Source of the DNA: a bacterium
Lineage (GTDB): Bacteria > UBA8248 > JACPRG01 > G963555815
Assembly: GCA_963555815.3 (NCBI GenBank)
Contig: CAUVWX020000002.1
Coordinates: 576,001 to 640,000, forward strand
Reading direction: 5' to 3'
Length of the DNA stretch: 64,000 nt
Made by a program: the position numbers and the translations under genes. The first letter of the stretch is position 1; the number at the start of each line of letters is the position of its first letter. The notes below the pieces were generated by a model, which saw only the letters and a list, made by a program, of their open reading frames with translations, was not told where the DNA came from and ran no database searches. Shown piece by piece: positions 32,430 to 51,579 of the stretch.

Positions 32430-33922
32430 CTAGTTTAAGACCTGCTTGATCCTCCCCTCGACCCGGGGGGAAACCTCGGGCCTCTTCTTCAGATACTGGA
32501 CAAAAAGGTCCCGGGGAGAGAGGGACTCGGGAAGGGGGACAGCCTCTGCTCCCGCCAGGGACCGGTGGCCATCCCCCCCCTTGGCCAGAAAATCGGTGGT
32601 CGCAAGGCGGTAGAGCCGGTCCGGAACGATCTCTGTCCCACCGACTATGAGGGAGAGGAGACGACTCCCCGGGGGCCGCTTGGGGTCGTAAGTCAGCCTG
32701 ACCCCCGAGACCTGCAAAAAGCCTCCGGTCCCACGCCGGGCCACACCGTCCTCCAGGGCCTCCTTGATGTTCGCCCCCGACACTTTTAGCAGGACCACTC
32801 GGTCATCGAAGAGGAAGGTGCCGTGTGCGAAACGATCCGTCAGCACCCCGGGCGGGACATTCTCATCGATGCGGATCCCACCCGCGTTCAGGAAGGCGAG
32901 GTCGGCCCCCGTCTCCTCTCTCAGGGCGTCGGCAACGAGGTTTCCAAGGTTTGACTCCTCAAAGCGGACGATTTGCTCAAGACCTTGGAGCGTCACGCGA
33001 GAGCGGCTGAGGGGGATTTCCGGCCCGAGCCTATCCTGAAGCCTCTCGGTCCACCTCTCGACCGTGGCCCTGACCCGAGAGTCCTCAGGAAGATCCTAGG
33101 TCAGGGGGATGACTTTGGCCGTGAGAGACCGGTCGGGGGATCCAGGGTTTTCGACCACGACACGAATGAGGGTCCGCGCGTCACTGTCGGCCTTCGCAAT
33201 AAGGGTCCGTCCCACAAAGGAGATCCGGTGATCGTGATCGTGGCCGCCCGCGATGAGGTCGATCTCAGGGTAGCGGCGGGCCAGTGCCCGATCTTCCTCC
33301 ATCGAGAGATGGGTGAGGGCGATGAGGAAGCTTACCCCCTCTCTTCTGAGGGCCTGTATGGTCTTCTCCGCCGCGACCAGGGGGTCGAGATAGCGGACAT
33401 AGGCCTGGGACCTCTCGGCGAGGGTGAGACCGAAGATCCCCACCCGGGCACTTCCCACCTCTCGCAACAGATAGGGCCTGACCCCTCCAAAAGGTTTCCC
33501 GGTCCGGGCATCCAGGACATTGGAAGAAACCCAGGAGAAACGGGATTCGGAGATCCGGCTCAGGAGGACCTTCGGGTCCGGGTCATCAAACTCGTGGTTT
33601 CCGAATGTGGCCATGTCCAGACCCGCCTGATTCATGGCCTCGATCATCTGCCTGCCCTGAAAGTGGCGACTCATGAGGGAGGGAAACAGGAGGTCCCCGG
33701 CGTGGAGGTAGAGGACATCAGACCCACGCCGCCGCTCTTCGGCCACCAGGGCGGCCACCCGGGCCAGCCCCCCCTTCGGCCCCCGTCCACGGCGCGGATC
33801 CGGTAGACGTCATTGGTCTGAAAGATGATGAGCTTCTTCGAAGGGAAAGGGTCTGCAAAGGAGGAGGAAAGAAAAACAAGAAGGCCGAGAAAGATGAAGA
33901 TCGAGGGGGGAAGTTTTCTCAT
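32430..33922 (-). pseudogene. bifunctional metallophosphatase/5'-nucleotidase (UshA-like), disrupted by a frameshift and an in-frame TAG
   Basis: Signal peptide, QTNDVY, HAGD, GNHEFD, GGHDH, ESNLGNLVADA, NAGGIR, GGDG; frameshift in C7 run 33768-33774 and TAG at 33096-33098. Confidence 0.85.
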
Positions 33923-33938
33923 GAGGGCGCGCAAAAAA

Positions 33939-34286
33939 TTAAGGCCCAAATAGCTGCTCATAAATCTTGGCGTTGAAGCCGACGGCGGTCTTCTTCCCAG
34001 CGACGACCACTGGGCGCCTGATGAAGGTATACTCTTCGGCCATATACCTCAGGAGGTCTCGTTCAGAAAGCTCCTTTCGGTCAAGGCCAAGCGTCCGATA
34101 TTTGAGGGCCCTGCGGGAGAAGAGGGTTTCTGCGCCGCCCACCGCCTTGGCCAGAATCTCGACTTCCTTTCGGCTGATGGGGTCTTTTTTGATGTCCCGA
34201 AACTCCGGACCCAGATGCCCCAAACCCTTGAGAAAGGCGACCGCCTTCTGGCAGGTTCCTCAGGTGGAAGACCAGTAGATTTTCAT
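33939..34286 (-). CDS. ArsC/Spx-family protein; predicted selenoprotein, 115 aa, U9 (UGTC)
   Basis: ATG 34286: MKIYWSST-TGA-GTCQKAVAFLKG, in frame with ORF 33939..34223 (FIRRPVVV...VGF). Confidence 0.88.
34234..34247 (-). promoter_or_regulatory. candidate SECIS hairpin of ArsC-like gene
   Basis: AAGGC-[GGUC]-GCCUU; loop begins at +18 from the UGA. Confidence 0.7.
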
Positions 34287-34471
34287 CTTTTCAGGTTAAA
34301 GGGGGCGCAGGCCGGAGTCAATCTGGAAAAAGCCCCCTGTCACAGGAGAGATTGGCAAAAATGGAAAGGGACCCGTATACTTTCTTTAAATTTCATTGAG
34401 ATGTGTTGACACGATCGCGCCACCTGAGGGCCGACAAGCCTCTGACGGAGGTTCCCAAGCGAGGAGGAGAG

Positions 34472-34789
34472 ATGGACTCCATTCGTGTGAAGGAGATGGA
34501 ACGTTATTCCGCCGAGAAGATGCAGAAGGTAAACCTCTTTGAGACCGAACGGATGTTCTGTGACGTATATTGCCTTGAGCCCGGCCAGGTCCAAAAACCC
34601 CACCGCCATGAGGGGGCCGACAAGATCTACTATGTCCTGGAGGGCAAAGGGACGTTTCAGGTGGGAAAAGAGACAAAAGAACTTTCGGCTGGCACCATTA
34701 CCATGGCCCCCTCAGGTCAGGAACATGGCGTCGTGAACGAATCCCAGGACCGCCTGCTGGTCCTCGTCTTCATGGCACCTCATCCGTGA
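34472..34789 (+). CDS. cupin domain protein
   Basis: PGQVQKPHRH...YVLEGKG...GQEHGVVN; GAGGAGG SD. Confidence 0.88.
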   Translation: MDSIRVKEMERYSAEKMQKVNLFETERMFCDVYCLEPGQVQKPHRHEGADKIYYVLEGKGTFQVGKETKELSAGTITMAPSGQEHGVVNESQDRLLVLVFMAPHP

Positions 34790-34864
34790 TCCCCAGTTCC
34801 TTTCTCCAGGAAAGGCACAAAGGGTTTTTGTCTCATTCCTCTTGAGATAAAAGGAGCCGCGACC

Positions 34865-36259
34865 ATGGCGGAACAGAGTCTACGGGATCACCTCAGTAGG
34901 CTGGAGAAGGCGGGGCGCCTCTTCCACGTGAAGGCCGAGGTGGACAAGGATTGGGAGATCGCCTGCGTCACGCGACAGGCGATGGGGCTCCCGCCGCAAG
35001 AACGGTTCGCCATCCAATTTGACCACGTCCGGGGCTTTCAAACACCGGTGGTCGTGGGAGCCATCGGGGCGTCTCGGGACATCTACGCCCTGGCCCTCGG
35101 TATCCAAGAGGGTGAGATCCACGAGAGATGGCTTCACGCCCTTCGCCACCCCGTCGAGCCCCGCATGACGACGGCCGCGCCTTGCCAGGAACATGTGGAC
35201 CGAGATAGCCAGGTGGACCTGCAGAAATTCCCGGTCCCCACCTGGACCCCGACGAAAGACGGAGGGCCTTATTTCTCAGCGGGCTGCGTCGTCATAAAGG
35301 ACCCCGAAACGGGGATCCAAAATGTGGGGATCTACCGGCTCATGGTCCATTCGTCCAACCTCCTGGGGATCCTCATCATCCCCGCCAAGCACAGCGGGAT
35401 CATCTACTCAAAGTATGAGGCCATGAATCGGCCCATGGAGGTGGCGGTCGTCATTGGCCCGCCGCCCTCGGTGGTCATGGCGGGCGCGGGGAGAGTCCCC
35501 TACGGGGTCGATGAGTTGGCCGTGGCGGGAGGCCTTCTGGGGTCCCCCCTCGACCTGGTCAAGTGTCAGACAGTGGACCTCCAGGTCCCGGCTCAGTCGG
35601 AGATGGTCATCGAGGGGGTCATCCCCCCCCATGAGCGGCGCCACGAGGGGCCCTTTGGCGAGTTCTTCGGCTATATGGGGGAGGACGGCGACGCGCCCGT
35701 GGTCAGGGTGCAGGCCCTCTGTTACCGCTCAAACCCCATTCACCAGGGGATCATGGAGCAAAAACCCCCCAGCGAGGGGAGCTACATTAAGGATATCGCG
35801 ATGGAGTCCATCCTCCTCGGGGCCCTTCGAGGGATAGGGGTCCCGGGGGTCCTCGACGTGCACGTGGGGGAGATGAGCGCTCAATCCCACGTGGTGGTCG
35901 CCATCCAAAAGCTCTTCCCGGGCCACGCCAAGACTGTCATGCACGGATGTTGGGCGAGTTATCCGAACCGTTGCAAGCAGGTGACCGTGGTGGAGGGGGA
36001 CTGTAATATCTCCGACTCAGCCGATGTGGAGTGGCATATCGCCTCTCGGGTCCAGCCGGATCGGGATATTGAGGTTATCTCAGAGGCGACGGGTCACACG
36101 CTAGACCCCTCTATGCCGGAAGGGAGAAAGATCTACGGGGCAAAGATGGGCGTTGACGCCACCCGAAAACACCCTTACCCCGAGGTCTCTCTCCCCCCGG
36201 AAGAGATGCTGAACAGGGCCCGGAAAGACTGGAAGAGATACGGCCTCCCGGCTCCTTAG
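34865..36259 (+). CDS. UbiD-family prenyl-FMN-dependent (de)carboxylase
   Basis: DGGPY, NVGIYR, VIEG, EGPFGEFFGY, RVQPDRDI, KMGVDAT. Confidence 0.92.
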   Translation: MAEQSLRDHLSRLEKAGRLFHVKAEVDKDWEIACVTRQAMGLPPQERFAIQFDHVRGFQTPVVVGAIGASRDIYALALGIQEGEIHERWLHALRHPVEPRMTTAAPCQEHVDRDSQVDLQKFPVPTWTPTKDGGPYFSAGCVVIKDPETGIQNVGIYRLMVHSSNLLGILIIPAKHSGIIYSKYEAMNRPMEVAVVIGPPPSVVMAGAGRVPYGVDELAVAGGLLGSPLDLVKCQTVDLQVPAQSEMVIEGVIPPHERRHEGPFGEFFGYMGEDGDAPVVRVQALCYRSNPIHQGIMEQKPPSEGSYIKDIAMESILLGALRGIGVPGVLDVHVGEMSAQSHVVVAIQKLFPGHAKTVMHGCWASYPNRCKQVTVVEGDCNISDSADVEWHIASRVQPDRDIEVISEATGHTLDPSMPEGRKIYGAKMGVDATRKHPYPEVSLPPEEMLNRARKDWKRYGLPAP

Positions 36260-37233
36260 AGCTGGTAGTGGTCGTAGGCCGACCCTTCGAGCGCCTGCAG
36301 ATAGTCCTGAAATCTCTCGTTAAACTCTTCTGTCCGCTCCAGGGGACCATAGTGCCCGGCCGTGGGGAGCACGAGCTTGTTAACATCCCGGAACCCTGTC
36401 GCGGTTGTTGTACCCGCACCTCGATGATCGCCCCCCGCTCCGGCCATCTGGTCGGCGGCCTTCACGTACTCGGGCCCATCCTCGGTCCCTATCACCACCA
36501 AAACTGGAGCCTGGATTCCCTTAATCCGGCCCATGAGGTCTGGGCGATTCAGCATGCCCTCAACAGTGGCGGCAAAGGCCTCAGGGGTGCTTCGGAGGGC
36601 CTGCTTCTTGACCCAGTTCCGAGTGGGAAATTCATCCTGAAGGAACCCCGCCTCCGTGTGGTGGTTAAAGAAAGGCTTCAGCCCCGGTGTATTGTCGAGC
36701 CAGTGCTCGACGGCCGCCTCGAGCCCTTTCGAGCGTGCCAGCTTGGCAATTTCCGACAGCTTCGTTTTCTCCGCGGCATCAGGGGCGTTGGGGTTGGCGC
36801 CACACATGACAAGCCCCTGGACACGCGCGGGATACTCCAGCGCAGTGTTCAGGGCCACTCTGGCCCCATTGGAAAGGCCGCAGAGGACCGCCCGCTTGAT
36901 CTTCAGGTTGTCCATGAGCCCGATGACATCCTTGGACAGGCCCTGGATGTCGTATCCATCCTTGGGCTTATCTGAATCCCCCACCCCCCGGGCATCGTAG
37001 GAGACGGTTTGACAGAGAAAATCGAGGTGCTGATGCTGATGGGTCCAAAAGTCGGACGTGCTCCCAAGCCCATGGATAAAGATCACGGACCTGCCGCCAT
37101 AATTACTTCCTGACCAGGAAATCCCCTCCCCTCCCGAGACTTTATAGGCAAGGTTCACTCCGTTCACGTTGGCCTTCTTGACCACATACTGCTCGGACGT
37201 TTTTTGCCCCAATGGGCTTCGAGCTTGTACCAT
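36256..37233 (-). CDS. alpha/beta-fold hydrolase (enol-lactone hydrolase-like)
   Basis: FIHGLG, DARGVGDS, GLSNG nucleophile, GTEDG, GHY triad; AAGGAG SD before ATG 37233. Confidence 0.85.
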   Translation of the reverse strand: MVQARSPLGQKTSEQYVVKKANVNGVNLAYKVSGGEGISWSGSNYGGRSVIFIHGLGSTSDFWTHQHQHLDFLCQTVSYDARGVGDSDKPKDGYDIQGLSKDVIGLMDNLKIKRAVLCGLSNGARVALNTALEYPARVQGLVMCGANPNAPDAAEKTKLSEIAKLARSKGLEAAVEHWLDNTPGLKPFFNHHTEAGFLQDEFPTRNWVKKQALRSTPEAFAATVEGMLNRPDLMGRIKGIQAPVLVVIGTEDGPEYVKAADQMAGAGGDHRGAGTTTATGFRDVNKLVLPTAGHYGPLERTEEFNERFQDYLQALEGSAYDHYQL

Positions 37234-37495
37234 GTACTTTCTCCTTCGTTTCAGCACTTTTTAGGATTAACGGGTTTATTAGCGAGCGGGAGTATAGCAC
37301 ATTTTTCCTGGGGGGAAAGCCTTTTTTTGCCCTTTTTTGCCCCTCTTTTTGCCCCTCCTGGGCTAAAAATTTCGGTTGACTTCTGAGATGGGAGCGGGCA
37401 AAGTAAAGGGGCAACATAGGAAAATTAGTCTACCCTTCTGCACGAAGGACAAAAGAGTGTGTGGGACTATCTGACGACAGGAGGAAAGAAAGAGA

Positions 37496-37816
37496 ATGGC
37501 TATTTTAAAGGCCCCTATTGCTGGGAAAGAGCAAGATGTGGAAAAGGCGTTTGGGACGGTCGTTGAGGCTGAGTGCAAGGATGCCAAGCTGGCCATCAGC
37601 TTCAATAAGAAGTACGATGGGTATAATCTCAAGCTGGAGAAGATGGGCGTGAAGCGGGACCTCTTCTTTCACGAGATCCGTCTCACCAGTGACCACGACG
37701 AGAAGGGGCTCATCGAGGCCGTGAAGTATGAGGCCCAAAGCCTGGAGCGGGACACGAAATACCCATCTGTCCTGGAACTCGCCCGCGGGGGGAAGGTTAC
37801 ACCAGGTTTTTCATGA
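37496..37816 (+). CDS. hypothetical protein (106 aa)
   Basis: GAGGA SD and coding-like codon usage; no family recognised. Confidence 0.7.
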   Translation: MAILKAPIAGKEQDVEKAFGTVVEAECKDAKLAISFNKKYDGYNLKLEKMGVKRDLFFHEIRLTSDHDEKGLIEAVKYEAQSLERDTKYPSVLELARGGKVTPGFS

Positions 37817-37962
37817 GAGAGAGCCCCAAAAGGGGGGCCCGAATCCCGAAGAGAAGAGGTTCTCTGCCAATCGGGTGGGAATCCTCCAAAGAATCCTCCC
37901 GCTCCAGTTACCCGTTAGCGGAAGGGTACAAAGGGGCTAAATAGCACCCAAGAGGGGATAAT

Positions 37963-38364
37963 ATGGTCTATGTAGTTATCGAGGCCTGTATCGGCGTAAA
38001 GGATAGTATCTGTGCCCAGGTGTGCCCGGCCGAGTGCATCTACGAGGGGGAGGACATGTTCTACATCGACCCCATCGATTGCATCGACTGTGACGCCTGT
38101 GTGCCCGTCTGTCCCGTCGACGCCATCTACAAGGAGGACCAGGTCCCCGAGAAGTGGAAAGACTATACCCAGAAGAACGCCGACTGGTTTATTACGGGGG
38201 ACGGTCGGGAGGCCAAGGCGACGGGCAGGATCATGGAGGGCGTATATCGAACCCTGGGCTCAGACCCGCTCCATTTGAACCGTGTCGACATGGATAAGGT
38301 GAAGGCCAAGGCCCCCATTGCCACGAAACTCAATATCGTGGCAGACGAGACGGGGGATAGGTAG
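37963..38364 (+). CDS. dicluster Fe-S ferredoxin with C-terminal extension
   Basis: CIGVKDSICAQVCP and CIDCDACVPVCP...AIY..DQVPEKW, followed by ~55 extra residues. Confidence 0.92.
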   Translation: MVYVVIEACIGVKDSICAQVCPAECIYEGEDMFYIDPIDCIDCDACVPVCPVDAIYKEDQVPEKWKDYTQKNADWFITGDGREAKATGRIMEGVYRTLGSDPLHLNRVDMDKVKAKAPIATKLNIVADETGDR

Positions 38365-38401
38365 ATCTAGACTCTTCCTTCTCGCCCTTTTCGCACGCCA
38401 T

Positions 38402-38440
38402 AAAAAGAGGCCGCTGGATTTTTTCAGCGGCCTCTTTTTT
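38402..38440. terminator. bidirectional intrinsic terminator
   Basis: AAAAAGAGGCCGCTG-loop-CAGCGGCCTCTTTTTT. Confidence 0.85.
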
Positions 38441-38460
38441 ACCCCCGTCCCCTTCCAAAA

Positions 38461-38682
38461 AAGGACGACCAGGTCCCCCAGAAGCGGAAAGACTATACCC
38501 AGAAGAACGCCGGCTGGTTTGATACTGAGGGGGGTCGGGAGGCCAAGGCGACAGGCAGGATTATGGAGGGCGTATATCAATCCATGGGCCCAGACCCGCC
38601 GCCGGGCTCAGACCCCCTCCATTTGAACCGTCTTGATATCGACAAAGTGAAGGCTGGCGCCCCCACTGTCACGAAACCCAAC
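38461..38682 (+). pseudogene. diverged partial duplicate of the ferredoxin 3' half (copy of ~38131-38334)
   Basis: In-frame KDDQVPQKRKDYTQKNAGWF...IMEGVY...DPLHLNRLDIDKVK without the Cys motifs or a 5' end; 330-bp offset. Confidence 0.85.
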
Positions 38683-38722
38683 AAAAAGAGGCCGCTGGAA
38701 AAATCCAGCGGCCTCTTTTTTT
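38683..38722. terminator. second copy of the bidirectional intrinsic terminator
   Basis: AAAAAGAGGCCGCTGGA-AAAA-TCCAGCGGCCTCTTTTTTT; serves the convergent Mo/W enzyme gene. Confidence 0.85.
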
Positions 38723-38760
38723 ACCCCTATCCCCTTGTTAGAAGGGGAAGGTCTTAGGTG

Positions 38761-41007
38761 CTATACCTGGTCGTAGGTCGTCACCGGCTCGTCGCACTTC
38801 GTAATTCGGGCAAGAACCACTCCCAGATACCAACTTCCGGTGGCCGGGTCACTGTGGTTCGGGTCGTCAGAGGTGCACAGGTTGACGTTTGACTCCCAAA
38901 CCCCAAGGAGCGTGGGCTCGGCCGCCGACTTGTCAGGGAACCACCATCCGAAGGCAGGGCAGATCACCTTGGGATGAATGGCGTCCGTCACCCGGGCCAG
39001 CTGCTTGCACCGACCGTGACGAGTCTCGATCCACACAGCGTCCCCATCCTCGATCCCGTGCTTCTTCGCCACCTCAGGGTGTATCTCACACAGCGGTCTC
39101 GGCTCAAGGCGCCGCTGAGCATCGATATGCCGGTGCGAGGAATGGAGGAACGCCTTGCACTTTCGGCTGATCATCACGTAGGGGTAGTCCTTCAGAAGGT
39201 CAGGCGTCCTGAAGGGGCTCTCAGCCGGCTCAATGTGGTCCGGCAGAGGGTCATACCCCAGGTCCTTGTAGATGGTGGAGGAGAGCTCCACCTTCTGCAT
39301 ATTGGTCCTGAAACGGCCGATCTGCTCATGCTCCTTGTGGGGCAGGACCTCTGTGTCCCAGTACTTGGTGCTGGAAAACTGCTCCCAGGTCATCCCCGTC
39401 GGCTTCAGCCGGTAGTCGTACACATCTTCCAAGGTCTCCCAGGGCCAGATCTCTTTCTCAGTTTGACCCAACCGGATCCCAAGCGCCCGCCAGAAGTCAT
39501 AATCGTCATAGCGGTCAAACTCCCCTTCTTTCTTCTTGGGAAGTGCGCGCTGGCCGGTGGCCAGGGTATTGGCGTGCTCCAAGAAGGAGAACTGGGGACG
39601 CTCGACCCAGTGGGTGACAGGAAGGACATAGTCCATCAGGGCACCCGTCGGGTTCATGGTCAAGTCGAGGTTCACCGCGAGTTCCGTGTTCTTGATCGCC
39701 TCATACACATGGCGCGAGTTCGAGAGGGTCAGTATGGGGTTCGAGCCATTGACAATCAACGCTCGAATGGGATAGGGATGCCCTGTGCGGCACGCGTGGA
39801 TGATGGAGGCAAACGGGGCCCCACGGACAATCGCGGTACGCACCGCATACTTAATCTCATCAGGGAACTTCTCCCAGCCGGGCCATGACATCGCCTTGAA
39901 GCGCTCAGACCCAACGGCCTTGCGGTACTGCTCCGGAGGAAGCGCATCGGGCATTTCCATCTTGGTCAGATAGACGTACTTCGAGTAGGCCCGGATAAAC
40001 TGGTTACCCCCTCGAACGTCCAAGTTGCCCGTGACGGCCCGCAGGCAGCACCGGGCGCGCTCCGTCCCAGAGATGTTCAGCCCGTAGTAGCCAATGGGGC
40101 TCCCCCACTGGATGTAGCCCGGCTTCACCGTCGCATACATCCGCGCAGACTCCACCACTTCCTTCTCAGTGAGCCAGCAAAGCTCGGCTGTTTTCTTCGG
40201 GGGGTACTTCTGGACCCTCTCCTTCAGCTCATCAAAGCCGTGCGTCCACTTGGCCACGAATTCCTTGTCGTAGAGCTCCTCGTTGATGATGACGTTCAGC
40301 CAGCCCATGGCCAGGGCGCCGTCCGAACCCGGGCGGAGCTGAAGGAACATATCCGCTCGGTCCACCTCACGGATCCGGGTCGGGTCGATCACGATCATCT
40401 TCTCTACGTTCCGGGCCCGGTCCCACTTGATGGGGCTCGTGATGGTGGGGCGATTCCCCCAGATAACCAGAAGACGCGTGTGAATGGGGTCGCAGGGACC
40501 GTAGTGGGCAATCCCGCCGTAGACGACGAGGTTCGCCCAGGCCTCGGTCCCACCACAGATCCGGGCGTCCGCGCTGTCCGTGTTGGGGCTCCCAAAGTTG
40601 TTCATGAAGCGCGCGACTTCCCACTGCTCATTGTAGAACCCAAAACCGCAACCTACAGTCTCGGCCCCGTACTTGTCCTTAATCTTCTGCAGCTTCTCCC
40701 CGATCTCATCGATGGCTTGCTTCCAGGAGATCTCCTTCCACTTGTTCTCCCCACGCTCTCCAGCTCGCTTCAGGGGGTAGTTCAAGCGGCTCGGGTGATT
40801 GGTCTGCTCCACTGTCCCCTTCTGCTTAGGACAGCCCTCAATCTTGAAGAAGGGGGTCATCGGGCTTTCTTTGAAAGTCGCGACCTTGACCAGCTTCCCG
40901 TCTTCAATGTGCAGCTCGGTGTGACAGATGTCGTGTTCACAGTTCTTACAGAGACCGATCTTGATCTCTCGCTTGGGCGCAGTTTTCACCGCGGGTGGTG
41001 TCGCCAT
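38761..41007 (-). CDS. Mo/W-bisPGD oxidoreductase, acetylene hydratase-like clade, cytoplasmic
   Basis: N-terminal CKNCEHDIC...CPK Fe-S motif, RLNYPLKR, FGSPN...ICGG (Cys ligand), RPGSDGALA, HSSHR, EIHP; no Tat signal. Confidence 0.9.
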   Translation of the reverse strand: MATPPAVKTAPKREIKIGLCKNCEHDICHTELHIEDGKLVKVATFKESPMTPFFKIEGCPKQKGTVEQTNHPSRLNYPLKRAGERGENKWKEISWKQAIDEIGEKLQKIKDKYGAETVGCGFGFYNEQWEVARFMNNFGSPNTDSADARICGGTEAWANLVVYGGIAHYGPCDPIHTRLLVIWGNRPTITSPIKWDRARNVEKMIVIDPTRIREVDRADMFLQLRPGSDGALAMGWLNVIINEELYDKEFVAKWTHGFDELKERVQKYPPKKTAELCWLTEKEVVESARMYATVKPGYIQWGSPIGYYGLNISGTERARCCLRAVTGNLDVRGGNQFIRAYSKYVYLTKMEMPDALPPEQYRKAVGSERFKAMSWPGWEKFPDEIKYAVRTAIVRGAPFASIIHACRTGHPYPIRALIVNGSNPILTLSNSRHVYEAIKNTELAVNLDLTMNPTGALMDYVLPVTHWVERPQFSFLEHANTLATGQRALPKKKEGEFDRYDDYDFWRALGIRLGQTEKEIWPWETLEDVYDYRLKPTGMTWEQFSSTKYWDTEVLPHKEHEQIGRFRTNMQKVELSSTIYKDLGYDPLPDHIEPAESPFRTPDLLKDYPYVMISRKCKAFLHSSHRHIDAQRRLEPRPLCEIHPEVAKKHGIEDGDAVWIETRHGRCKQLARVTDAIHPKVICPAFGWWFPDKSAAEPTLLGVWESNVNLCTSDDPNHSDPATGSWYLGVVLARITKCDEPVTTYDQV

Positions 41008-41138
41008 CTTTCTCTCCCTTTTTTTAGTCCTGTTTTCAACCCTGCTGGCGCAGAAATGTACCGAAAATCCCCTTCCGGGGAGTTGCTGATAGGCCTAACG
41101 ACAGGCTGTCGCTGCCGAACTCAGCATGAATATTTAAA

Positions 41139-41168
41139 ATATTACCCTTTCACCTCTGACCTTGTCAA
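41139..41168 (-). promoter_or_regulatory. sigma-70-type promoter of the Mo/W enzyme gene
   Basis: Minus strand TTGACA-18 bp-TAATAT; palindrome AATATT-TAA-AATATT overlaps the -10/+1 region. Confidence 0.55.
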
Positions 41169-41244
41169 CTACTATTTACTATTTTTCACCCTTCACGAAA
41201 CTTCACGAAAAACCGGAGAAAGCCAAACAAGTGCGCCAAATACT

Positions 41245-42327
41245 TCACTCCAGGTTCCCGGCCACCTGCTCACGACTCAACTGGGCAAGCCGCTCTTCCA
41301 GCTCCGCCACCTTCGCCGTCAGCCCACGAACCGCTTCGGCACCCTGCCCCGCCTCGCCCTCCTTCGCCGGGCCTCGGTCCCAAGGGGTGTAGGCGTTGGT
41401 GTTGACGTCAAGACGAATCACGTCCCAGCGAGCATCCCGCCCGCAGACGTCAATGTAGCACTTGCGGCGAAGGCCCTGATAAAGGTCCACGTCCGCATAA
41501 AGGATGGTCTCCTTCCCATACACCGGCCCCACCAGATACTCGCCATTGGGGTCAATGACGGCGCTCCCGCCAGGAAACCCCCAATGGGCGTTCCCCAAGT
41601 TGGCCACTTCGGCAGCCTCCTCAGGGATATAGGTCGAAGCAGCCACCACAAAACAGGACCCCTCAATGGCGTAGGCCCGAGAGGCGATCTGGACAATCTC
41701 CTTATTGCTACGCCCAGGGGGAGGATAATCGGGCCAGCTCCCAGGCCAGCAGGCACAATGAATCTGCTCCCCTTGAGCCATCAAGGCATATTTGAAAAGG
41801 GGCTGGAGGTGCTCATAGCAAATCAGCCCCCCTACCTTCCCCACCTCTGTGTCAAAGACACAATGGAGGTCAGAGCCATCCCCGCGGCCATGAAACACCC
41901 GCTCCCGATGAGAAGGTGTGAACTTCCGGTGACGACCCAGGACCTTCCCGTCAGGACCAAAGAAGACCAGGGAGTTGTAGAGCATCCCAGGATAATCCTT
42001 GCGGCGCTCATTCAAACCCATCACCACCACCGCCCCGGCCTTGCGCGCCGCTTCACCAATGGCCCGCGTCTCCTCGCTCGGCACCTCCACCGAATGGAGG
42101 ATCAGCTCCGCCAGATTATCGGCCCACTCATTCGGACGGGCCATGTCCACCGACCAGTTCGGAAACATGGGAATAAACCCCTCAGGAAAGGCCACCAAAC
42201 GTGCCCCCTGAGAGCCCGCCTCTTCAATGAGACGACAGGCCTTCTCTGTCGTCGCCTGCTTGTTCATCGGAAGAATGGGGGCAGCCTGAACCGCCGCCAC
42301 TTTCAGTTTTAAGACATCCTTCGCCAT
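41245..42327 (-). CDS. nitrilase (carbon-nitrogen hydrolase family)
   Basis: VAAVQAAP; FPEG, HRKF and ICYEH give the Glu-Lys-Cys triad; GEQIHCA. Confidence 0.92.
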   Translation of the reverse strand: MAKDVLKLKVAAVQAAPILPMNKQATTEKACRLIEEAGSQGARLVAFPEGFIPMFPNWSVDMARPNEWADNLAELILHSVEVPSEETRAIGEAARKAGAVVVMGLNERRKDYPGMLYNSLVFFGPDGKVLGRHRKFTPSHRERVFHGRGDGSDLHCVFDTEVGKVGGLICYEHLQPLFKYALMAQGEQIHCACWPGSWPDYPPPGRSNKEIVQIASRAYAIEGSCFVVAASTYIPEEAAEVANLGNAHWGFPGGSAVIDPNGEYLVGPVYGKETILYADVDLYQGLRRKCYIDVCGRDARWDVIRLDVNTNAYTPWDRGPAKEGEAGQGAEAVRGLTAKVAELEERLAQLSREQVAGNLE

Positions 42328-42356
42328 AGCTCCTCCCCCTCATTATCTCTGGGCAA

Positions 42357-42968
42357 TCAACCAGAACTCCTCCGCCCTTCACCCAAAAGCCGTGCCTTTT
42401 CCAATTCCTCAGGGGTATTCAGGTTCCGAAAAGAAAGGAGGTCCGGGTCGTGGCGCATCAGCGTCTCCTGGCCGACCTCCTTCACCTTAACCAAGGGAAA
42501 GAGGCCATGGATAGCCAGGCGCCCCTCCCCCAAAAGGGTCTCAATAGGGCCGCGGCAGCTCTCGCAATAGACCGCATGAAGAGGCTCCGGGCCCGAGTCC
42601 GAGACGGGGACAACGACATCGAAGCCCTCACGTTCCTCGACCAGATGCCGGATAAGGGCCTCGTTCAGAAAAGGCATGTCACAGGAGGCAAAAAAGGCGT
42701 GAGGGGCCCCGGCATGAACAAGGCCCGTATAGACCCCGCCGAGAGAGCCCTTCCCCGGGTAGATGTCCGTATGGATCTCAAAACCCAGATTTTCGTAGAG
42801 GGAGGGGGTGTTGGTGATCACGAGATTACGTTCGAATATAGACTCAAGGACCTCGGCCACCCGCTCAACCAGGGGCTTATCGCCCACGGGGAGGAAGGCC
42901 TTATCCCTTCCCATCCGGCGGCTCTTGCCGCCGGCCAGCACCACCCCGGTGACCTCTTGGTATCGCAC
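42357..42968 (-). CDS. mobA: molybdenum cofactor guanylyltransferase
   Basis: LAGGKSRRMGRDKA, SCDMPF, EPLHAVY, NLNTPEE. Confidence 0.95.
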   Translation of the reverse strand: MRYQEVTGVVLAGGKSRRMGRDKAFLPVGDKPLVERVAEVLESIFERNLVITNTPSLYENLGFEIHTDIYPGKGSLGGVYTGLVHAGAPHAFFASCDMPFLNEALIRHLVEEREGFDVVVPVSDSGPEPLHAVYCESCRGPIETLLGEGRLAIHGLFPLVKVKEVGQETLMRHDPDLLSFRNLNTPEELEKARLLGEGRRSSG

Positions 42969-43008
42969 GGTGTCTCATCCTATCCGACACAAGGGGCAGT
43001 GCCCCTCT

Positions 43009-43578
43009 CTAGGGGACAGAGGAAGTCCGACTCCCCCGCGCGCCTTGCCCCGACGCACGAGACTTAGAATTAAGAAATTTTTGCTCGATGAAGTCAGCGA
43101 TTCCCTGATCGTTGTCCAGATGAAAACGCGGGACCTCCACCGACAACTCCGTGTCCGAGGCAACCGCCACCAGGGACTCATCGTCCTGACAAAAAAGCCC
43201 CTCACCGACCTCATGACGATGGACTTCTATCTTGGGAATCTTGCTCCGCTTGTAACCCTCGACCAGGACGAGGTCCGCATCCTCGATATAGGAACGGGCG
43301 ATCTCCTCAGGTTGGAGATTGGGCGAAACCTTTCTGACGATGACCACTTCGCCCTGGGTTGAGGCGATAGAGACATGGGCCCCCGCCTTGCGGTGGCGCC
43401 AAGTATCCTTGCCTTCCCGCTCGATGCTGAAGGTGTGGGCGTGCTTAATTGTCCCGATTCGATAGCCTCTCTGAGTCAGCGCCTCAACGAGCTTGACCAC
43501 CAAGGTCGTCTTCCCGCTACCGGAATAGCCGACCACAGCGAGGACAGGAATTCCCTCTTGGTTCGAGTCCAGCGTCAC
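43009..43578 (-). CDS. mobB: molybdopterin-guanine dinucleotide biosynthesis protein B
   Basis: VGYSGSGKTT, IKHAH, GKDTWRH, LVEGYK. Confidence 0.93.
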   Translation of the reverse strand: MTLDSNQEGIPVLAVVGYSGSGKTTLVVKLVEALTQRGYRIGTIKHAHTFSIEREGKDTWRHRKAGAHVSIASTQGEVVIVRKVSPNLQPEEIARSYIEDADLVLVEGYKRSKIPKIEVHRHEVGEGLFCQDDESLVAVASDTELSVEVPRFHLDNDQGIADFIEQKFLNSKSRASGQGARGSRTSSVP

Positions 43579-44729
43579 TTTCTTCTACCCTGTTTTTGCC
43601 ACCCCTTCGCCTCCTTATCCCCCCACTTGAAGATATCGGTGGGCGAAGACTCGGTGTACGAAACGGCTTCTCCCCGCCCCGGAAAGGCTTTGAAGGAAAA
43701 GTTGAAGGGGGAGTCACGGAGGGGCCGTCTCACGCGATTTTCGAGGACCCCTATCACCTCGATTTCGCACCGGATGTCGTCGCCCACCTGGAGATACCCG
43801 CCCTGCTTCGCCTCGCCGGAACGCTCGTGGGTATTGGCGCCGAGCGCCTCGTCCGAACCCAGGCCACAGCCCCCCGGCGTCCCCATGGCGATGACAAACC
43901 CCGGTTTCAGGGACATGATTCGCGAGACGTAATGGATAGTCTCCGGAATAGACCAGAGGAAATTCTTGGTGTTATCTTCCTGGCGCAACTCTCCATTCAC
44001 CCAGGTCCTCATGCCCAGGTCCTCTGGGTGATCCATCTCCGCTTTGGTGAGGATCCAGGGCCCGAGGGCGACACTCTTGTCGAAATTCCTCCCCTGCCCA
44101 TAGCGAACGTGGAACTCCTTTCCTCCCTCCCCCCAGGGGAGAATCTCATGGTCCCGGGCCGAGAGGTTGTTGATGATGGTATAGCCGAAGACGTGGTCCA
44201 GGGCCTTCTCAGGAGGGATGTTTCGGCCCCCCTTCCCAATCACAACGCCCAGCTGAACACCGTAGTCGAGCTTCTTTATAAGACGGGGGTCGACCCAAAA
44301 CGCCTCGCCCGGACCAATCACGGTGTGGGGTAACTTGAGAAAGAAGCCGGCCTGGTCGGGCCGGGTCCGGTTGGTCTCATCGAAGTAGTCCTTGAAATTC
44401 GATTCAAGACACACCAGGGCTCGGGGGGTGAGGGGAAGCTTGGGAACAAGCGTGGACACATCGTAGGGGAGATCGACAAGCCCCTCATTGAAGATCTTTG
44501 TGCCAAAGGCGACGCCCGCGTTGAAGGCCCTCAGATACTTATCTCCCCCCTCCAGGATTTGAGCAAAATCGTAGGGGAGCCTCTCAGCGGCCATTTCTCT
44601 CGCCCTAGGGTCTCCCACGATGTCGTTTAAAAAGAGGGCGTAGCACTCCTGTATGTCGATCACCTTGTCCTCGTGGACAAAGGTGCCCAACATCCTCTTC
44701 ATCCCGTGCTCAACGTTGATAATCTTCAT
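43575..44729 (-). CDS. fumarylacetoacetate hydrolase (FAH)-family protein lacking the canonical metal ligands
   Basis: FFLK, LDYGVQL, GYTIINNLSARD, LGPWI, MGTPGG, GVLEN. Confidence 0.85.
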   Translation of the reverse strand: MKIINVEHGMKRMLGTFVHEDKVIDIQECYALFLNDIVGDPRAREMAAERLPYDFAQILEGGDKYLRAFNAGVAFGTKIFNEGLVDLPYDVSTLVPKLPLTPRALVCLESNFKDYFDETNRTRPDQAGFFLKLPHTVIGPGEAFWVDPRLIKKLDYGVQLGVVIGKGGRNIPPEKALDHVFGYTIINNLSARDHEILPWGEGGKEFHVRYGQGRNFDKSVALGPWILTKAEMDHPEDLGMRTWVNGELRQEDNTKNFLWSIPETIHYVSRIMSLKPGFVIAMGTPGGCGLGSDEALGANTHERSGEAKQGGYLQVGDDIRCEIEVIGVLENRVRRPLRDSPFNFSFKAFPGRGEAVSYTESSPTDIFKWGDKEAKGWQKQGRRK

Positions 44730-44741
44730 CGTTGACCTCGA

Positions 44742-45758
44742 CTAGGAATCCTCGTGAATCTTCTCAACCGAATTCTCCAGCGAGCCGATGGAGTCAATCT
44801 CGGCCTTAATCTTATCACCCAGCTTTAGAAAACCGCATTTCATCGCAGGAACTGCCAGGGTGGGCCCGCCGGAGTCCGACCGGCCCAGCCGGGGGCCTCC
44901 GGGGCTTCCGCTGGCGATGACAATTCCCGGGTCCAGTGTAAAGAAGGTGGAGAGGTGGCTGACGAAGGAGAGGGGGTCGATCGGCAACTCATCCGGCTTG
45001 AACTCTTCTTGGAGCTCCCCGTTGACCCATAGCCGATGCGAGAGATTCTCCACACCACCCTCTATCTCGTCCTTGGTGACGATCCAAGGGCCCAGGGCGC
45101 CCGCCGCTTCAAGGCAGACCCCCTCCAAGACCCGGCTGTGGAACACCCCGCCCTCCATGCCCATGCTCAACTGGTCTGCCGCCAAGATGTCCGTGAATAT
45201 CGTAAAACCGAAGATGTGGTCTAGGACCTCGTTCTGGGGGATATCCTTTCCCCCCTGTCCAATGATAATGCCAAGCTCTACCTCGGAACGGAGGTCCTTG
45301 GCCACCTCCGGCTCATGGGAGATAGGGTCTCCAGACCCGATCACGTGGGGGCCGGATTTGACGAAAAACTCTGCATGTCGGTAGAGGTCCATATCCTCGG
45401 CCTGTGCAGGCCCGTAGCCCGCGCACACCACCGCATCCGGTTGAAGGGGAGCCCTCAGGCGCACCTCGCGCAGAGGTCGGACCTCTGCGAAAAGGTCCCC
45501 CTCGGCACGCCGAGTTTCAAAGTGCTCGAGGGCTTGGACCGCCGCCTCCCAGGACGACTCTCCTCCACGGATGAAGTGGAGCATACTGCTTGAAATCCGA
45601 GCCCTCGCGAGTCCCTCTGCACGCCGATCTCCCTCAACCTCTGATAGATACCTGGCGTAGAGCCGCTCGAGGTCGGCCACCTCATCTCCCACAACGCAGC
45701 CGATCCTCGTCTGGCCATCAAAGACGTAGGTCCCGAGCTTCATGCGCTCACTCTCCAA
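44742..45758 (-). CDS. FAH-family protein (divergent paralog)
   Basis: SEVELGIIIG, GFTIFTD, LGPWIVT, SGSPGG, IGSLEN; start may be TTG 45758 or ATG 45743. Confidence 0.85.
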   Translation of the reverse strand: MESERMKLGTYVFDGQTRIGCVVGDEVADLERLYARYLSEVEGDRRAEGLARARISSSMLHFIRGGESSWEAAVQALEHFETRRAEGDLFAEVRPLREVRLRAPLQPDAVVCAGYGPAQAEDMDLYRHAEFFVKSGPHVIGSGDPISHEPEVAKDLRSEVELGIIIGQGGKDIPQNEVLDHIFGFTIFTDILAADQLSMGMEGGVFHSRVLEGVCLEAAGALGPWIVTKDEIEGGVENLSHRLWVNGELQEEFKPDELPIDPLSFVSHLSTFFTLDPGIVIASGSPGGPRLGRSDSGGPTLAVPAMKCGFLKLGDKIKAEIDSIGSLENSVEKIHEDS

Positions 45759-45817
45759 AAAAGCCGTTGCCAGTGCATGTAATAAAAGGAGTGTTTCGGC
45801 GACTGGTCTGTATAAAC

Positions 45818-45846
45818 ATTATCTGGCCACAGGGGCTTCCTGTCAA
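45818..45846 (-). promoter_or_regulatory. sigma-70-type promoter of the FAH-FAH-mobB-mobA-nitrilase operon
   Basis: Minus strand TTGACA-17 bp-GATAAT. Confidence 0.65.
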
Positions 45847-45913
45847 TATACACCCAGCCACGTTCCCCGATAACTCACGCCGTTTTCCCCGGCCCCTCCA
45901 CCCACTGTTGGAG

Positions 45914-47116
45914 CTACCCCCCCTCACTCTCTCTCGAGAAAAGGCACATGAGAAAGCCGAAGAGCAGGAGGGCCGCACCGAGATAAAAAGCGCCGACCAG
46001 AGAGCCCGTCAGGTCCCGGATGAGACCCGACAACACGGGGGCCACGATCCCCGAGGAGATTCCGATTAAGTTCACCACCCCCATTGCCGTCCCCATGGCC
46101 TCCGGTCTGCTTCTCGCCACATCGTCTCCGACCCACGCCAGGAGGATGGGCTCCACTGCTGGTTTTCCAGTGGCACCAAAAAACAAAAGGGCCAGGGCCA
46201 ACCCCAAAAGCGACTGGGAGTGGGCGATGAAGAACAGGCTTGCAGCCGCCAGGGGAAAGAGGACGAGGGAGAGGGGGCGCCGCCCTATCCGGTCGGAGAC
46301 CCTGCCCACGAGGATACTCACCGGGATGGCCGACAGGACAAAGATGGCTGCAAATAGGCCGGACCCCGTAACGCCGAAACCGTGCTCCGTCTGCAGGAAC
46401 AAAGGACCCCAGATGAGGATGAGCCAAAAACCATAAAGAGAGCAGAAATTAGCCAGAAATAAGGCGATGAGCCTGGGTTGTCCCAAAACGCTCCGAAGCG
46501 GTGCCCGAGGGCCTGCGGGCTTTGGAGGAAGCTCTTGGATGGCCCTGAGGTAGACCCCTGCCATCAGGGTCGTGGGGATGGCCAGGAGGACAAAGGGGAG
46601 ACGCCAGCTCTCCAGGAGCCGGAAGACGGGGCCCGAAAAGAGGAAACCGGCCCCCATGCCCACGAAGATACCCACGAAGACAGTGGCGGAGCGAACGGCC
46701 CGAAGATGGGGGGGTGAGGTCCTCAGCACATATCCAAAGGCCGAGGGAAAGTAGACGCCCGTGGCAAGACCGTGGATGGCCACAAAGAGGAGGAGGGTCT
46801 CGTAGCGGGTGGCGAGGAGTCCCAGGCCCACCAGCGCGACACCCGCCACCGCATAGCTCGTCGCAAGTGTCCTTCGGAATCCCACCCGGTCGGACAGAAA
46901 CCCTCCCAGGACCTGGGTGGACCCATAGAAGACGAAGAAGACACTGCTGATGGTCCCGATCTGGACCCCGCTCAGCGAGAAGTCATCCGCAATCACTGAG
47001 AGGAGGGGAAACAGCGTGGTCCTGTTAGCGAAGAGAAAGAGCCAACCCAGGAAGAAGATGAGAACGCCTGGACCCCAAACCTTCGCAGAAGACCTGGCCG
47101 GGGAAGTCGAGAGCAT
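45914..47116 (-). CDS. MFS transporter
   Basis: ~12 hydrophobic segments; GFLSDRVGFRR and GRVSDRIGRR motif A. Confidence 0.92.
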   Translation of the reverse strand: MLSTSPARSSAKVWGPGVLIFFLGWLFLFANRTTLFPLLSVIADDFSLSGVQIGTISSVFFVFYGSTQVLGGFLSDRVGFRRTLATSYAVAGVALVGLGLLATRYETLLLFVAIHGLATGVYFPSAFGYVLRTSPPHLRAVRSATVFVGIFVGMGAGFLFSGPVFRLLESWRLPFVLLAIPTTLMAGVYLRAIQELPPKPAGPRAPLRSVLGQPRLIALFLANFCSLYGFWLILIWGPLFLQTEHGFGVTGSGLFAAIFVLSAIPVSILVGRVSDRIGRRPLSLVLFPLAAASLFFIAHSQSLLGLALALLFFGATGKPAVEPILLAWVGDDVARSRPEAMGTAMGVVNLIGISSGIVAPVLSGLIRDLTGSLVGAFYLGAALLLFGFLMCLFSRESEGG

Positions 47117-47263: not shown

Positions 47264-47339
47264 TGGTGGAGGATAGGGGACTCGAACCCCTGACCTCGTG
47301 GGTGCGATCCACGCGCTCTCCCAACTGAGCTAATCCCCC
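47264..47339 (-). tRNA. tRNA-Ala (anticodon CGC)
   Basis: GGGGGATTAGCTCAGTTGGGAGAGCGCGTGGAT-CGC-ACCCACGAGGTCAGGGGTTCGAGTCCCCTATCCTCCACCA; 76 nt, G3:U70, encoded CCA. Confidence 0.97.
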
Positions 47340-50574: not shown

Positions 50575-51441
50575 TCAAACCAACCTGAGAACGTCTGCAA
50601 TAGCCTTTGCCACGGGCTTCGTAAAATCGTTGTCGGTCCAGTATTCGGAATGTGAGAGGGGGCTCCAGGAGGAGAAAACGCCTCCCGCATCGATTTCGAT
50701 GTCTTTGGTCACCGAATCCTCGTAACGTTGATAGTCTTTACCGGGTGGGTTCGGTGGGGGGTGTGTTTCTCTGTTACCCAATGGCATTAACGGATAGCCC
50801 AACACATCGTCTGCGTCATAAAAGTTGAGCCACTTCGCGGCCGGAAGGAGATTCGGAGACAGTTCGCCCGGGGGAAATTTGATGCTTTCAACTGGGTCAT
50901 AGGCCAGGCTGAAAAGGGGGATGTTGCTGCCAAAAGTGATGAAAACCGTCAGGGTCTCCATTCTCTCGAATGCGATCCCGCCAAATTCGTTCGGATCTTT
51001 CCCCTTCTGTCTGTCCCAGATATAGTTCGACATGATGACGCTTCCCAGGGAGTGGGCCAGCACGATCAAAGGCTTGTCCGCGTTGCCCAGGTCATTGCGC
51101 AAAGCGGCCAATTCCGTATGCACCTTTTTGTGGATCTTGTCGTAGATGTCCGCCTGCTTGCCGGGGACCCGTTGGTATGCGACAGCGTCCCCAAAGGCAT
51201 TGATGATGAACTGTCTGAGTTTGACGAAGTCGAGGCGATTCTTTTGTGAGAGATCGCGCCAAAGCTGTTCTTCCTTGGATTTAAGAATTTCGGCCCAATG
51301 CACAGGTTTCCAGCTCACTTGGGCTGGATCTGCACCCAGGTCTGAGATGCGATCGTCTAGCTCCTCCATCATTGAGTCCGCAAACTTTGAGTTCTGAGAT
51401 CCCATCCCGTGCACGACCAAGACACCCAGCTTAGACGCCAT
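50575..51441 (-). CDS. hypothetical alpha/beta hydrolase-like protein
   Basis: VVHGMG, AHSLGS, TFGS, NFYDADDVLG, SHSEYW; visibly lower GC. Confidence 0.75.
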   Translation of the reverse strand: MASKLGVLVVHGMGSQNSKFADSMMEELDDRISDLGADPAQVSWKPVHWAEILKSKEEQLWRDLSQKNRLDFVKLRQFIINAFGDAVAYQRVPGKQADIYDKIHKKVHTELAALRNDLGNADKPLIVLAHSLGSVIMSNYIWDRQKGKDPNEFGGIAFERMETLTVFITFGSNIPLFSLAYDPVESIKFPPGELSPNLLPAAKWLNFYDADDVLGYPLMPLGNRETHPPPNPPGKDYQRYEDSVTKDIEIDAGGVFSSWSPLSHSEYWTDNDFTKPVAKAIADVLRLV

Positions 51442-51579
51442 CTCCACTCTCCTTCAGTCCACCCGAACTCACGAGGGACAGGTGCTCACCACAGATAAGG
51501 AATTTTTGTTCTACGATACTGGAATAGCGATCTTCTCACAACGTCAGCCTGCATCTGAAGCCCATATCAGGGTGGTAGA

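Follow-up and report, generated by a model that had tools for sequence, protein, structure and literature searches.

A compact subfamily of acetylene-hydratase-like molybdenum/tungsten enzymes linked with a nitrilase and, less firmly, with a UbiD decarboxylase

Described relatives and the locus

Acetylene-hydratase-like enzymes form a very large group (2189 hits at E ≤ 1e-50), mostly without assigned function, and among the few studied relatives three dissimilar reactions are known: hydration of alkynes, dehydroxylation and formation of C-S bonds. We analysed one of these molybdenum/tungsten (Mo/W) enzymes, encoded together with a nitrilase and a UbiD-type decarboxylase in a 12-gene cluster (positions 34472-47116) of a 64,000-nucleotide stretch of contig CAUVWX020000002.1 (G000:C2:576001-640000, hereafter the window). 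The stretch belongs to the 2.08-Mb, 95.7% complete genome (G000) of an uncultured bacterial lineage. The acetylene hydratase of Pelobacter (Syntrophotalea) acetylenicus (2e7z) resembles the enzyme of the window in being a stand-alone subunit with an N-terminal 4Fe-4S site and a cysteine metal ligand; unlike it, our enzyme has a CX2CX4C motif, is linked with a nitrilase and UbiD, and belongs to a host that encodes a heme-copper oxidase subunit.

In eLife 50845, the catechol dehydroxylases (Dadh, Cldh and relatives) are described as the nearest clade to acetylene hydratase among bis-molybdopterin guanine dinucleotide enzymes. The clade counts many uncharacterised members from the environment, including one in an aromatic degradation operon, and smaller forms in Gordonibacter. 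Compared by description only, the window differs from the Eggerthella-type systems by its nitrilase partner and by having no iron-sulfur (Fe-S) or membrane-anchor subunits. [quoted passage not shown] Unlike MES, the Mo/W enzyme has two Pfam domains only, with neither a fused desulfurase nor a histidine methyltransferase partner. Genes of the aldoxime-nitrile pathway (oxd) are linked to nitrilase and acyl-CoA genes. In that pathway, too, a metalloenzyme, the heme protein OxdA, is tied to nitrile breakdown, with a histidine as acid-base catalyst (PMC5391958). The analogy is functional only; the cluster encodes no heme dehydratase (no genome-wide search for one was made). As for the two partners, their nearest solved structures are the 2,5-furandicarboxylate decarboxylase HmfF (6h6x, E 5e-82) for UbiD and Nit6803 (3wuy, E 2e-56) for the nitrilase, and the catalytic residues of both are kept in the window proteins. 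The histidine and arginine that we take to bind the HmfF substrate align to other residues in the window UbiD, and the genes that presumably accompany Nit1C nitrilases are not found beside the window nitrilase.

The pairing of an acetylene-hydratase-like subfamily with a nitrilase is apparently undescribed, since we did not find acetylene hydratase and nitrilase paired in the literature. The initial annotation had likewise recognised no described pathway with this gene set, and none matching it emerged from a literature search that covered few subscription papers. Being compact and having a fixed nitrilase partner, the subfamily should be unusually easy to de-orphan, because screening the nitrilase and UbiD can narrow the substrate, and any answer would add a new context for Mo/W reactions.

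A Mo/W enzyme subfamily repeatedly linked with a nitrilase

The Mo/W enzyme (748 aa, 38761-41007, minus strand), a core member of the cluster, has no twin-arginine signal. Its PF00384 and PF01568 domains, fold and single protein ligand place it in the dimethyl sulfoxide (DMSO) reductase family, whose cofactor is bis-pyranopterin guanine dinucleotide (bis-PGD). The Fe-S site comprises C20, C23, C28 and C59, and the metal ligand C151 aligns with Cys141 of acetylene hydratase, which is the nearest solved relative by sequence (E 1e-116) and also the best fold match of the predicted model (pLDDT 90; TM score 0.90, 33% identity). Among the best 120 of the 2189 hits, 29 sequences besides the query (27 full-length, 2 partial) form a subfamily recognised by a CxxC-xHD-x-C start and by YNEQW-type and DARICG-type motifs. 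The 28 aligned members and one further sequence make up one clade with support 1.0 among 76 sequences, and the subfamily profile picks a single 50% cluster (1182 bits vs 850 for the next). Two of 28 members are fused to rubredoxin. In one sub-branch (P0014-P0016, P0018, P0019, P0029; L098:5207-7411), glutamine replaces the second Fe-S cysteine (CxxQ), and such a copy sometimes lies beside a canonical one.

Pairwise alignment with acetylene hydratase shows that the equivalents of Cys141, Lys48 and Trp293 (W301) are kept, while Asp13 is replaced by Glu24, Ile14 by His25 (invariant in the subfamily), Ile113 by Tyr125 and Ile142 by Gly152, and both Trp179 and Trp472 are lost; apart from Asp13 and Cys141, these positions are those we take to be relevant, including a hydrophobic ring of Ile14, Ile113, Ile142, Trp179, Trp293 and Trp472, of which 5 of 6 differ and only Trp293 is kept. 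Asp13, Cys141 and a hydrophobic tunnel are described for acetylene hydratase in PMC11220757. A one-residue insertion blurs the register at the Asp13 and His25 positions. Judging from these residues, the pocket looks larger and more polar than that of acetylene hydratase, and because of the changes we ruled out that the protein is a true acetylene hydratase.

The class 1 nitrilase (41245-42327, minus strand; triad E49/K135/C170), the second core member, belongs to a clade tied to the Mo/W subfamily. Its nearest relatives are nitrilases (E 1e-56 to 1e-35), whereas matches to amidases and carbamoylases have E > 1e-17, and it reaches 226 bits against TIGR04048 (Nit1C/Nit6803), below the cut-off of 502.6. 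The probable third member, UbiD (34865-36259, plus strand), scores over the TIGR00148 cut-off, contains three UbiD domains, and keeps the arginine and the EGPFGE glutamates (R158/E261/E266) of a decarboxylase using prenylated flavin mononucleotide (prFMN). The initial annotation had noted that the required UbiX was absent; this is true of the cluster, but a UbiX-type flavoprotein, read as UbiX from its N-terminal sequence, is encoded elsewhere in the genome (G000:C2:69166-69678). A second UbiD of G000 lies outside the cluster, beside a prenyltransferase, and other members of the same family hold 33-68 UbiD candidates each.

Two collection scans with the subfamily alignment, which retained the best 80 of at least 603 and the best 80 of at least 608 stretches, yielded 155 loci, and more subfamily loci may exist. 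Six of them contain a subfamily enzyme (L018, L019, L020, L096, L097 and L098), and the remaining 149 (1.8 Mb, 83 of them at least 10 kb long) served as controls. We found a nitrilase in three of the six (L018, L098 and L096, the latter from the same genus as G000) and in none of the 149 control loci. UbiD matches of at least 50% were present in two of the six (L018 and L097) and in one control locus, L083, from the same betaproteobacterial cluster as L097. In L018, which comes from a genome of the same class as G000 and another family (G044, also the source of L020 and L208), UbiD (59%) and nitrilase (54%) stand in one divergent unit, and a CCG/GlpC-like gene follows the enzyme after 27 nt. 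In L098 the nitrilase (56%) lies directly downstream of the enzyme, in the order enzyme-nitrilase-NadX-CoA transferase and accompanied by two RidA genes, and in L097 UbiD (58%) is three genes from the enzyme. L019 is short, and the enzyme of L020 is a more deeply branching paralogue, accompanied by mobA and a 33% UbiD. G044 has 16 strong acetylene-hydratase-like matches in all, three of them from the subfamily.

As a proxy for co-location we also used contigs of exactly equal size holding the enzyme and a partner. Three such matches were found between 29 enzyme and 119 nitrilase clusters (null P 0.0014) and one between 90 outgroup enzymes and 119 nitrilases; the cluster member lists add an enzyme-nitrilase match at contig size 3860. 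Between clusters P0003 and P0136, 8 of 14 contig sizes match, within one deltaproteobacterial lineage. One equal-size match (P0175) lies outside the nitrilase clade, and a clade member of the same size was found later. The linked nitrilases verified on DNA all fall into one clade (23 of 126 sequences, support 0.986). Nitrilase and UbiD gave three matches with each other, which is not above chance (P about 0.08), and in a betaproteobacterial lineage 2 of 15 enzyme-UbiD contig sizes match. A survey of 51 genomes of the host phylum found the subfamily enzyme, the clade UbiD and the clade nitrilase in the same three genomes, representing two lineages. In a betaproteobacterial family, the enzyme occurs in 1 of 159 genomes and UbiD in 2 of 159, together in G042, where the subfamily gene begins at the border of the betaproteobacterial cluster. 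That cluster (L097, L083, L218, L019) also encodes two acetylene-hydratase-like enzymes, an SxtT/NdmA-like Rieske oxygenase, UbiD, a ferredoxin, a reductase and a tripartite transporter, with a corrinoid protein and RACo after the subfamily gene.

Linkage of the Mo/W enzyme with the nitrilase is thus strongly repeated, and that with UbiD moderately so. The initial annotation had made its cluster depend on co-occurrence in other genomes; this was found, in distant lineages and far above background, for the Mo/W enzyme and the nitrilase, less firmly for UbiD, and not for the full set. The first two very probably share a pathway, and the odds lean slightly towards UbiD being part of it.

Wider searches for the nitrilase, which scored 3-21 candidates per genome and may have missed some, found none in 401 genomes of the class of G211. 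In the phylum of G212, 2 of 401 genomes have nitrilases of a sister clade, next to which lie an acyltransferase and a UbiD of another kind (L225, L226; 29% identical, broken or partial in one), which makes a second nitrilase-UbiD pairing. No Mo enzyme lies near these sister-clade nitrilases in the available DNA, where the gene points to the contig end. Of five other genomes searched, one has a 38% nitrilase, and plasmid searches gave at best a 38% UbiD and a 42% nitrilase.

A proposed route and its rivals

The core enzymes likely act together to break down a nitrogen-containing compound. As a tentative reading, which we prefer among several, the cluster would be a genus-level mosaic around a core acting on a small (hetero)aromatic nitrile or acid, first by oxygen chemistry of a redox kind, then by hydrolysis of the nitrile and finally by decarboxylation. 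The Mo/W enzyme, likely tungsten-dependent, would take an oxygen from this substrate or add one to it, in a redox reaction resembling that of catechol dehydroxylases and with a ferredoxin or rubredoxin as possible electron partner; the nitrilase would turn the nitrile into acid and ammonia, and UbiD would remove CO2 using prFMN provided by the distant UbiX. The order of steps, the N-heteroaromatic substrate, the type of redox reaction and the source of prFMN are all conjectural. We favour redox because of the rubredoxin fusions, the CCG neighbour and the adjacent ferredoxins, and reductive dehydroxylation is the best-populated characterised sister function (eLife 50845). Elsewhere, the UbiD clade (54 members, support 1.0) lies near tripartite tricarboxylate transporters and near enzymes that resemble SxtT/NdmA (Rieske), PnpA/HspB and Mlr6791. 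Mlr6791 is, we assume, a hydroxypyridine decarboxylase, and by analogy these neighbours hint at an N-heteroaromatic ring. The pathway for an unsaturated or (hetero)aromatic nitrile or acid proposed in the initial annotation survives for the enzyme, the nitrilase and, less firmly, UbiD, but not for the remaining genes. Its supposed independence from oxygen fits the core chemistry; however, the host has a heme-copper oxidase, and the same UbiD clade is found in Proteobacteria with O2-dependent Rieske or FAD oxygenases.

The protein is the only PF00384 member and the only bis-PGD enzyme of G000, in contrast to 3-20 matches in each of 39 relatives from other genera, and the adjoining mobA (42357-42968) and mobB (43009-43578; over the TIGR00176 cut-off), both on the minus strand, are single-copy in the genome. 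G000 also encodes two moeA-like genes, identified by motif, and a TupABC-like importer whose TupA and TupB scores lie below the equivalog cut-offs. Since this importer is present and the genome, at 95.7% completeness, showed no ModA over cut-off, no AOR and no xanthine-dehydrogenase-family match, the metal is likely tungsten rather than molybdenum. That the enzyme is the sole one of its kind, adjoins its cofactor genes and is covered by RNA contigs from sponge and seawater samples suggests that the reaction matters to the organism. G000 further has a tRNA-Sec and a NuoB motif, with no formate dehydrogenase or NuoG-type PF00384 match, and its complex I may lack the N-module.

Several observations weigh against this preferred reading. 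The substrate is one that we infer; the Mo/W enzyme has no Fe-S or membrane partner subunit in the window, and its likeness to catechol dehydroxylases comes from description rather than from a shared tree. The case for tungsten depends on the below-cut-off TupA and TupB in an incomplete genome. The Mo/W gene is apparently transcribed apart from the nitrilase. Regarding UbiD, enzyme and UbiD representatives gave no equal-size contig match, L098 has no UbiD within 19 kb, G528 carries the clade UbiD with no Mo enzyme in 20 kb, the UbiD clade being wider than the enzyme, and the window UbiD groups with proteobacterial sequences and not with that of L018. In the betaproteobacterial genomes, a nitrilase (57-58%) is present only as fragments at contig ends, which do not adjoin the enzyme. 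Finally, hosts such as G044, with its many acetylene-hydratase-like matches, are rich in catabolic paralogues, so some adjacency is expected.

The main rival, which we regard as unlikely, is nitrile formation from an oxime: the Mo/W enzyme would itself make the nitrilase substrate, by dehydrating an aldoxime or cleaving the N-O bond of an oximino acid or isoxazol(in)e, as a tungsten counterpart of the heme aldoxime dehydratase in an oxime-nitrile-acid route. Such a reaction would need no partner subunit, the nitrilase is the tightest partner of the enzyme, and acetylene hydratase performs non-redox water chemistry at a triple bond (PMC11220757). The invariant His25 beside an acid residue recalls the acid-base His320 of OxdA (PMC5391958), although its position comes from a sequence alignment across the one-residue insertion. 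The NadX, RidA and CoA-transferase neighbours in L098 point the same way, and NadX also flanks the nitrilase in L018 and occurs in only 3 of the 149 control loci; however, it is an ordinary single-copy gene of the phylum (46 of 51 genomes) and is convergent with the nitrilase in L018. G000 itself has nadA and no nadB over cut-off. In addition, the rubredoxin fusions and the CCG neighbour indicate redox, and a Mo/W oxime dehydratase was not found in the literature. In a bolder version, to which we give slightly less credence still, a tungsten-dependent nitrile-forming enzyme (oxime dehydratase or N-O lyase) would head an undescribed route from oxime to nitrile, acid and decarboxylation, and the sponge-associated bacterium, with its genome of 2 Mb, would retain tungstate uptake and the making of bis-PGD for this one transcribed enzyme. 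If the oxime reading is true, the enzyme would represent a new class.

It is improbable that the enzymes share no pathway and are independent scavenging functions travelling together in catabolic islands. The locus does comprise at least five transcription units, the Mo/W gene having a promoter and RNA contigs of its own, most of the genes are limited to the genus or family, and gene order differs in each lineage. Nevertheless, the absence of nitrilases from all control loci, the single clade of linked nitrilases despite the altered gene order, and the retention of all three enzymes plus mobAB in a 2.08-Mb genome argue against it.

More improbable again, in our view, is that the enzyme works as acetylene hydratase does and hydrates an alkyne, a nitrile or the activated alkene of an unsaturated nitrile or acid. 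Acetylene hydratase is the closest structure, the cysteine ligand and the Lys48 and Trp293 equivalents are kept, and the enzyme is a stand-alone cytoplasmic protein, but the hydrophobic ring differs at five of six positions. The acid at the Asp13 position (glutamate here, aspartate in most close relatives) speaks for hydration, but across the subfamily this position holds D, E, Y, G, V, A or H. Hydration of a nitrile would need an amidase rather than a class 1 nitrilase, and acetylene hydratase is selective for acetylene according to PMC11220757. Sulfur transfer, like MES in reverse (desulfuration of a thione or thioamide), is the least probable, for although MES, whose module is related to acetylene hydratase, has an imidazole ring as its target and is capable of sulfur exchange (PMC9516567), and although in L019 the enzyme gene is followed by that of a betaine-type corrinoid protein, the 748-aa protein has no cysteine desulfurase fusion and no desulfurase or histidine methyltransferase was found among the annotated neighbours of the subfamily loci.

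Transcription, local genes and genomic setting

All genes named in the initial annotation are intact open reading frames (ORFs) whose families were borne out by Pfam and NCBIfam, the 12 genes of the stretch including a 106-aa ORF with no match in either. As that annotation had described, FAH2, FAH1, mobB, mobA and nitrilase are tightly packed, with gaps of 12, -4, 40 and 29 nt, and this spacing supports a single unit behind a promoter-like site at 45818-45846 (minus strand; TTGACA-17-GATAAT, 11/12 match, kept in the sister species G001). The site is, however, not the only one upstream of these co-directional genes: the Mo/W gene, 237 nt beyond the nitrilase, has its own promoter-like site at 41139-41168 (minus strand; TTGACA-18-TAATAT, 10/12), whose -35 element is kept in G001. 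Overall, the promoter scan gave 5 sites vs 4.0 ± 1.9 in shuffles, which is not above chance.

RNA contigs came from seven runs of four studies, and further contigs from one run whose type is not recorded. In X16, X19 and X20 (three studies) the whole Mo/W gene lies on a single contig (from 38761-38780 to 41042-41200), two contigs cover it in X12 and X15, and fragments do so in the sponge-labelled X17 and X18 (99% alike). Contigs end at the 5' side of the gene between 41034 and 41200, the X20 end at 41200 being loose; in X4, cover is complete over the 30 bins and continues across the Mo/W promoter. Flanking sequence such as 33320-34647 was without cover in one set of the runs. This pattern gives a weak hint of separate transcription. 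As RNA contigs cannot rank genes, the sparse cover of nitrilase, mob, FAH, UbiD and MFS genes was not read as low expression.

The Mo/W gene ends at a terminator hairpin (38683-38720). A second copy of the hairpin (38402-38439) and a degenerate duplicate of the 3' half of a ferredoxin gene (38461-38681) complete the segment 38402-38720, and one extra copy of this pair in G000 and two in G001 (L013:16880-18100) resemble a local tandem duplication between convergent genes. The FdxA-like dicluster ferredoxin itself (37963-38364, plus strand; NF045480 106.7 bits, below the cut-off of 125) has a C-terminal extension. RNA contigs cover it together with the gene of the 106-aa protein (37496-37816, plus strand), which belongs to no known family and is 86% identical in G001; neither it nor its G001 copy was found in the protein atlas.

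The remaining genes show no link beyond the genus or family; like the 106-aa protein gene, they are local additions, and whether or not they serve the core, they would do so in this genus only. A 105-aa Cupin_2 protein (34472-34789, plus strand; PF07883), found at none of the 155 loci, precedes UbiD, which converges, as first noticed, on a PcaD-like alpha/beta hydrolase (36256-37233, minus strand; G-x-S-x-G serine and C-terminal histidine), their stops overlapping by 4 nt. The hydrolase occurs in 2 of the 51 phylum genomes, both of this genus. The major facilitator superfamily (MFS) transporter (45914-47116, minus strand) has no link outside the genus, with two weak matches in control loci only.

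The two fumarylacetoacetate hydrolase (FAH)-family proteins had been expected to act on keto acids, which is uncertain for this pair. The catalytic set presumably consists of acidic metal ligands (E-x-E and D) and a lysine; FAH1 (43575-44729, minus strand) has G, Q, N and R at these positions (DYGVQL, INN, GRNFD) in both G000 and G001, and FAH2 (44742-45743, minus strand) keeps E-x-E and D without the lysine. The pair is found in 4 of the 51 phylum genomes, all of one family, including tandem pairs in G002 and G003 (G002:C273, G003:C1), where its neighbours are an AOR or else a Rieske enzyme plus one of the DMSO type. The losses look complementary: FAH2 orthologues lack the lysine in three aligned genomes, and FAH1 is canonical in G002. 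FAH1 of G003 has an in-frame stop, with a partial third copy nearby. A predicted FAH1-FAH2 complex scored 0.88, one control reaching 0.85.

The cluster lies 3' of a tRNA-Ala(CGC) gene, as initially annotated, at 47264-47339 on the minus strand. With no attachment-site repeat of the tRNA 3' end anywhere in the genome, and GC content at third codon positions of 0.68-0.79 against a genomic 10-90% range of 0.68-0.80, the stretch is not a recent island; no integrase was found, and the region and its flanks are collinear with G001 at 91-93% identity, so that a tRNA-anchored genomic island was rejected. We likewise rejected a single conserved unit, as the FAH, hydrolase, cupin and 106-aa genes occur in none of the 155 loci. 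The mosaic nature suspected from the outset applies to most genes, the full 12-gene set being found only in G000 and G001. Elsewhere in the window, a 5'-nucleotidase (32430-33960) is split into separate metallophosphoesterase and C-terminal ORFs, run X4 having small insertions at 33750 and 33767 there and G001 being unaligned, and a lower-GC ORF of 290 aa (50575-51447) has no Pfam match. Two glutamate-dehydrogenase-like ORFs on the same contig (window 11794-13128 and G000:C2:155926-157260) are of equal size with their first 100 residues identical, and one of them adjoins nadX.

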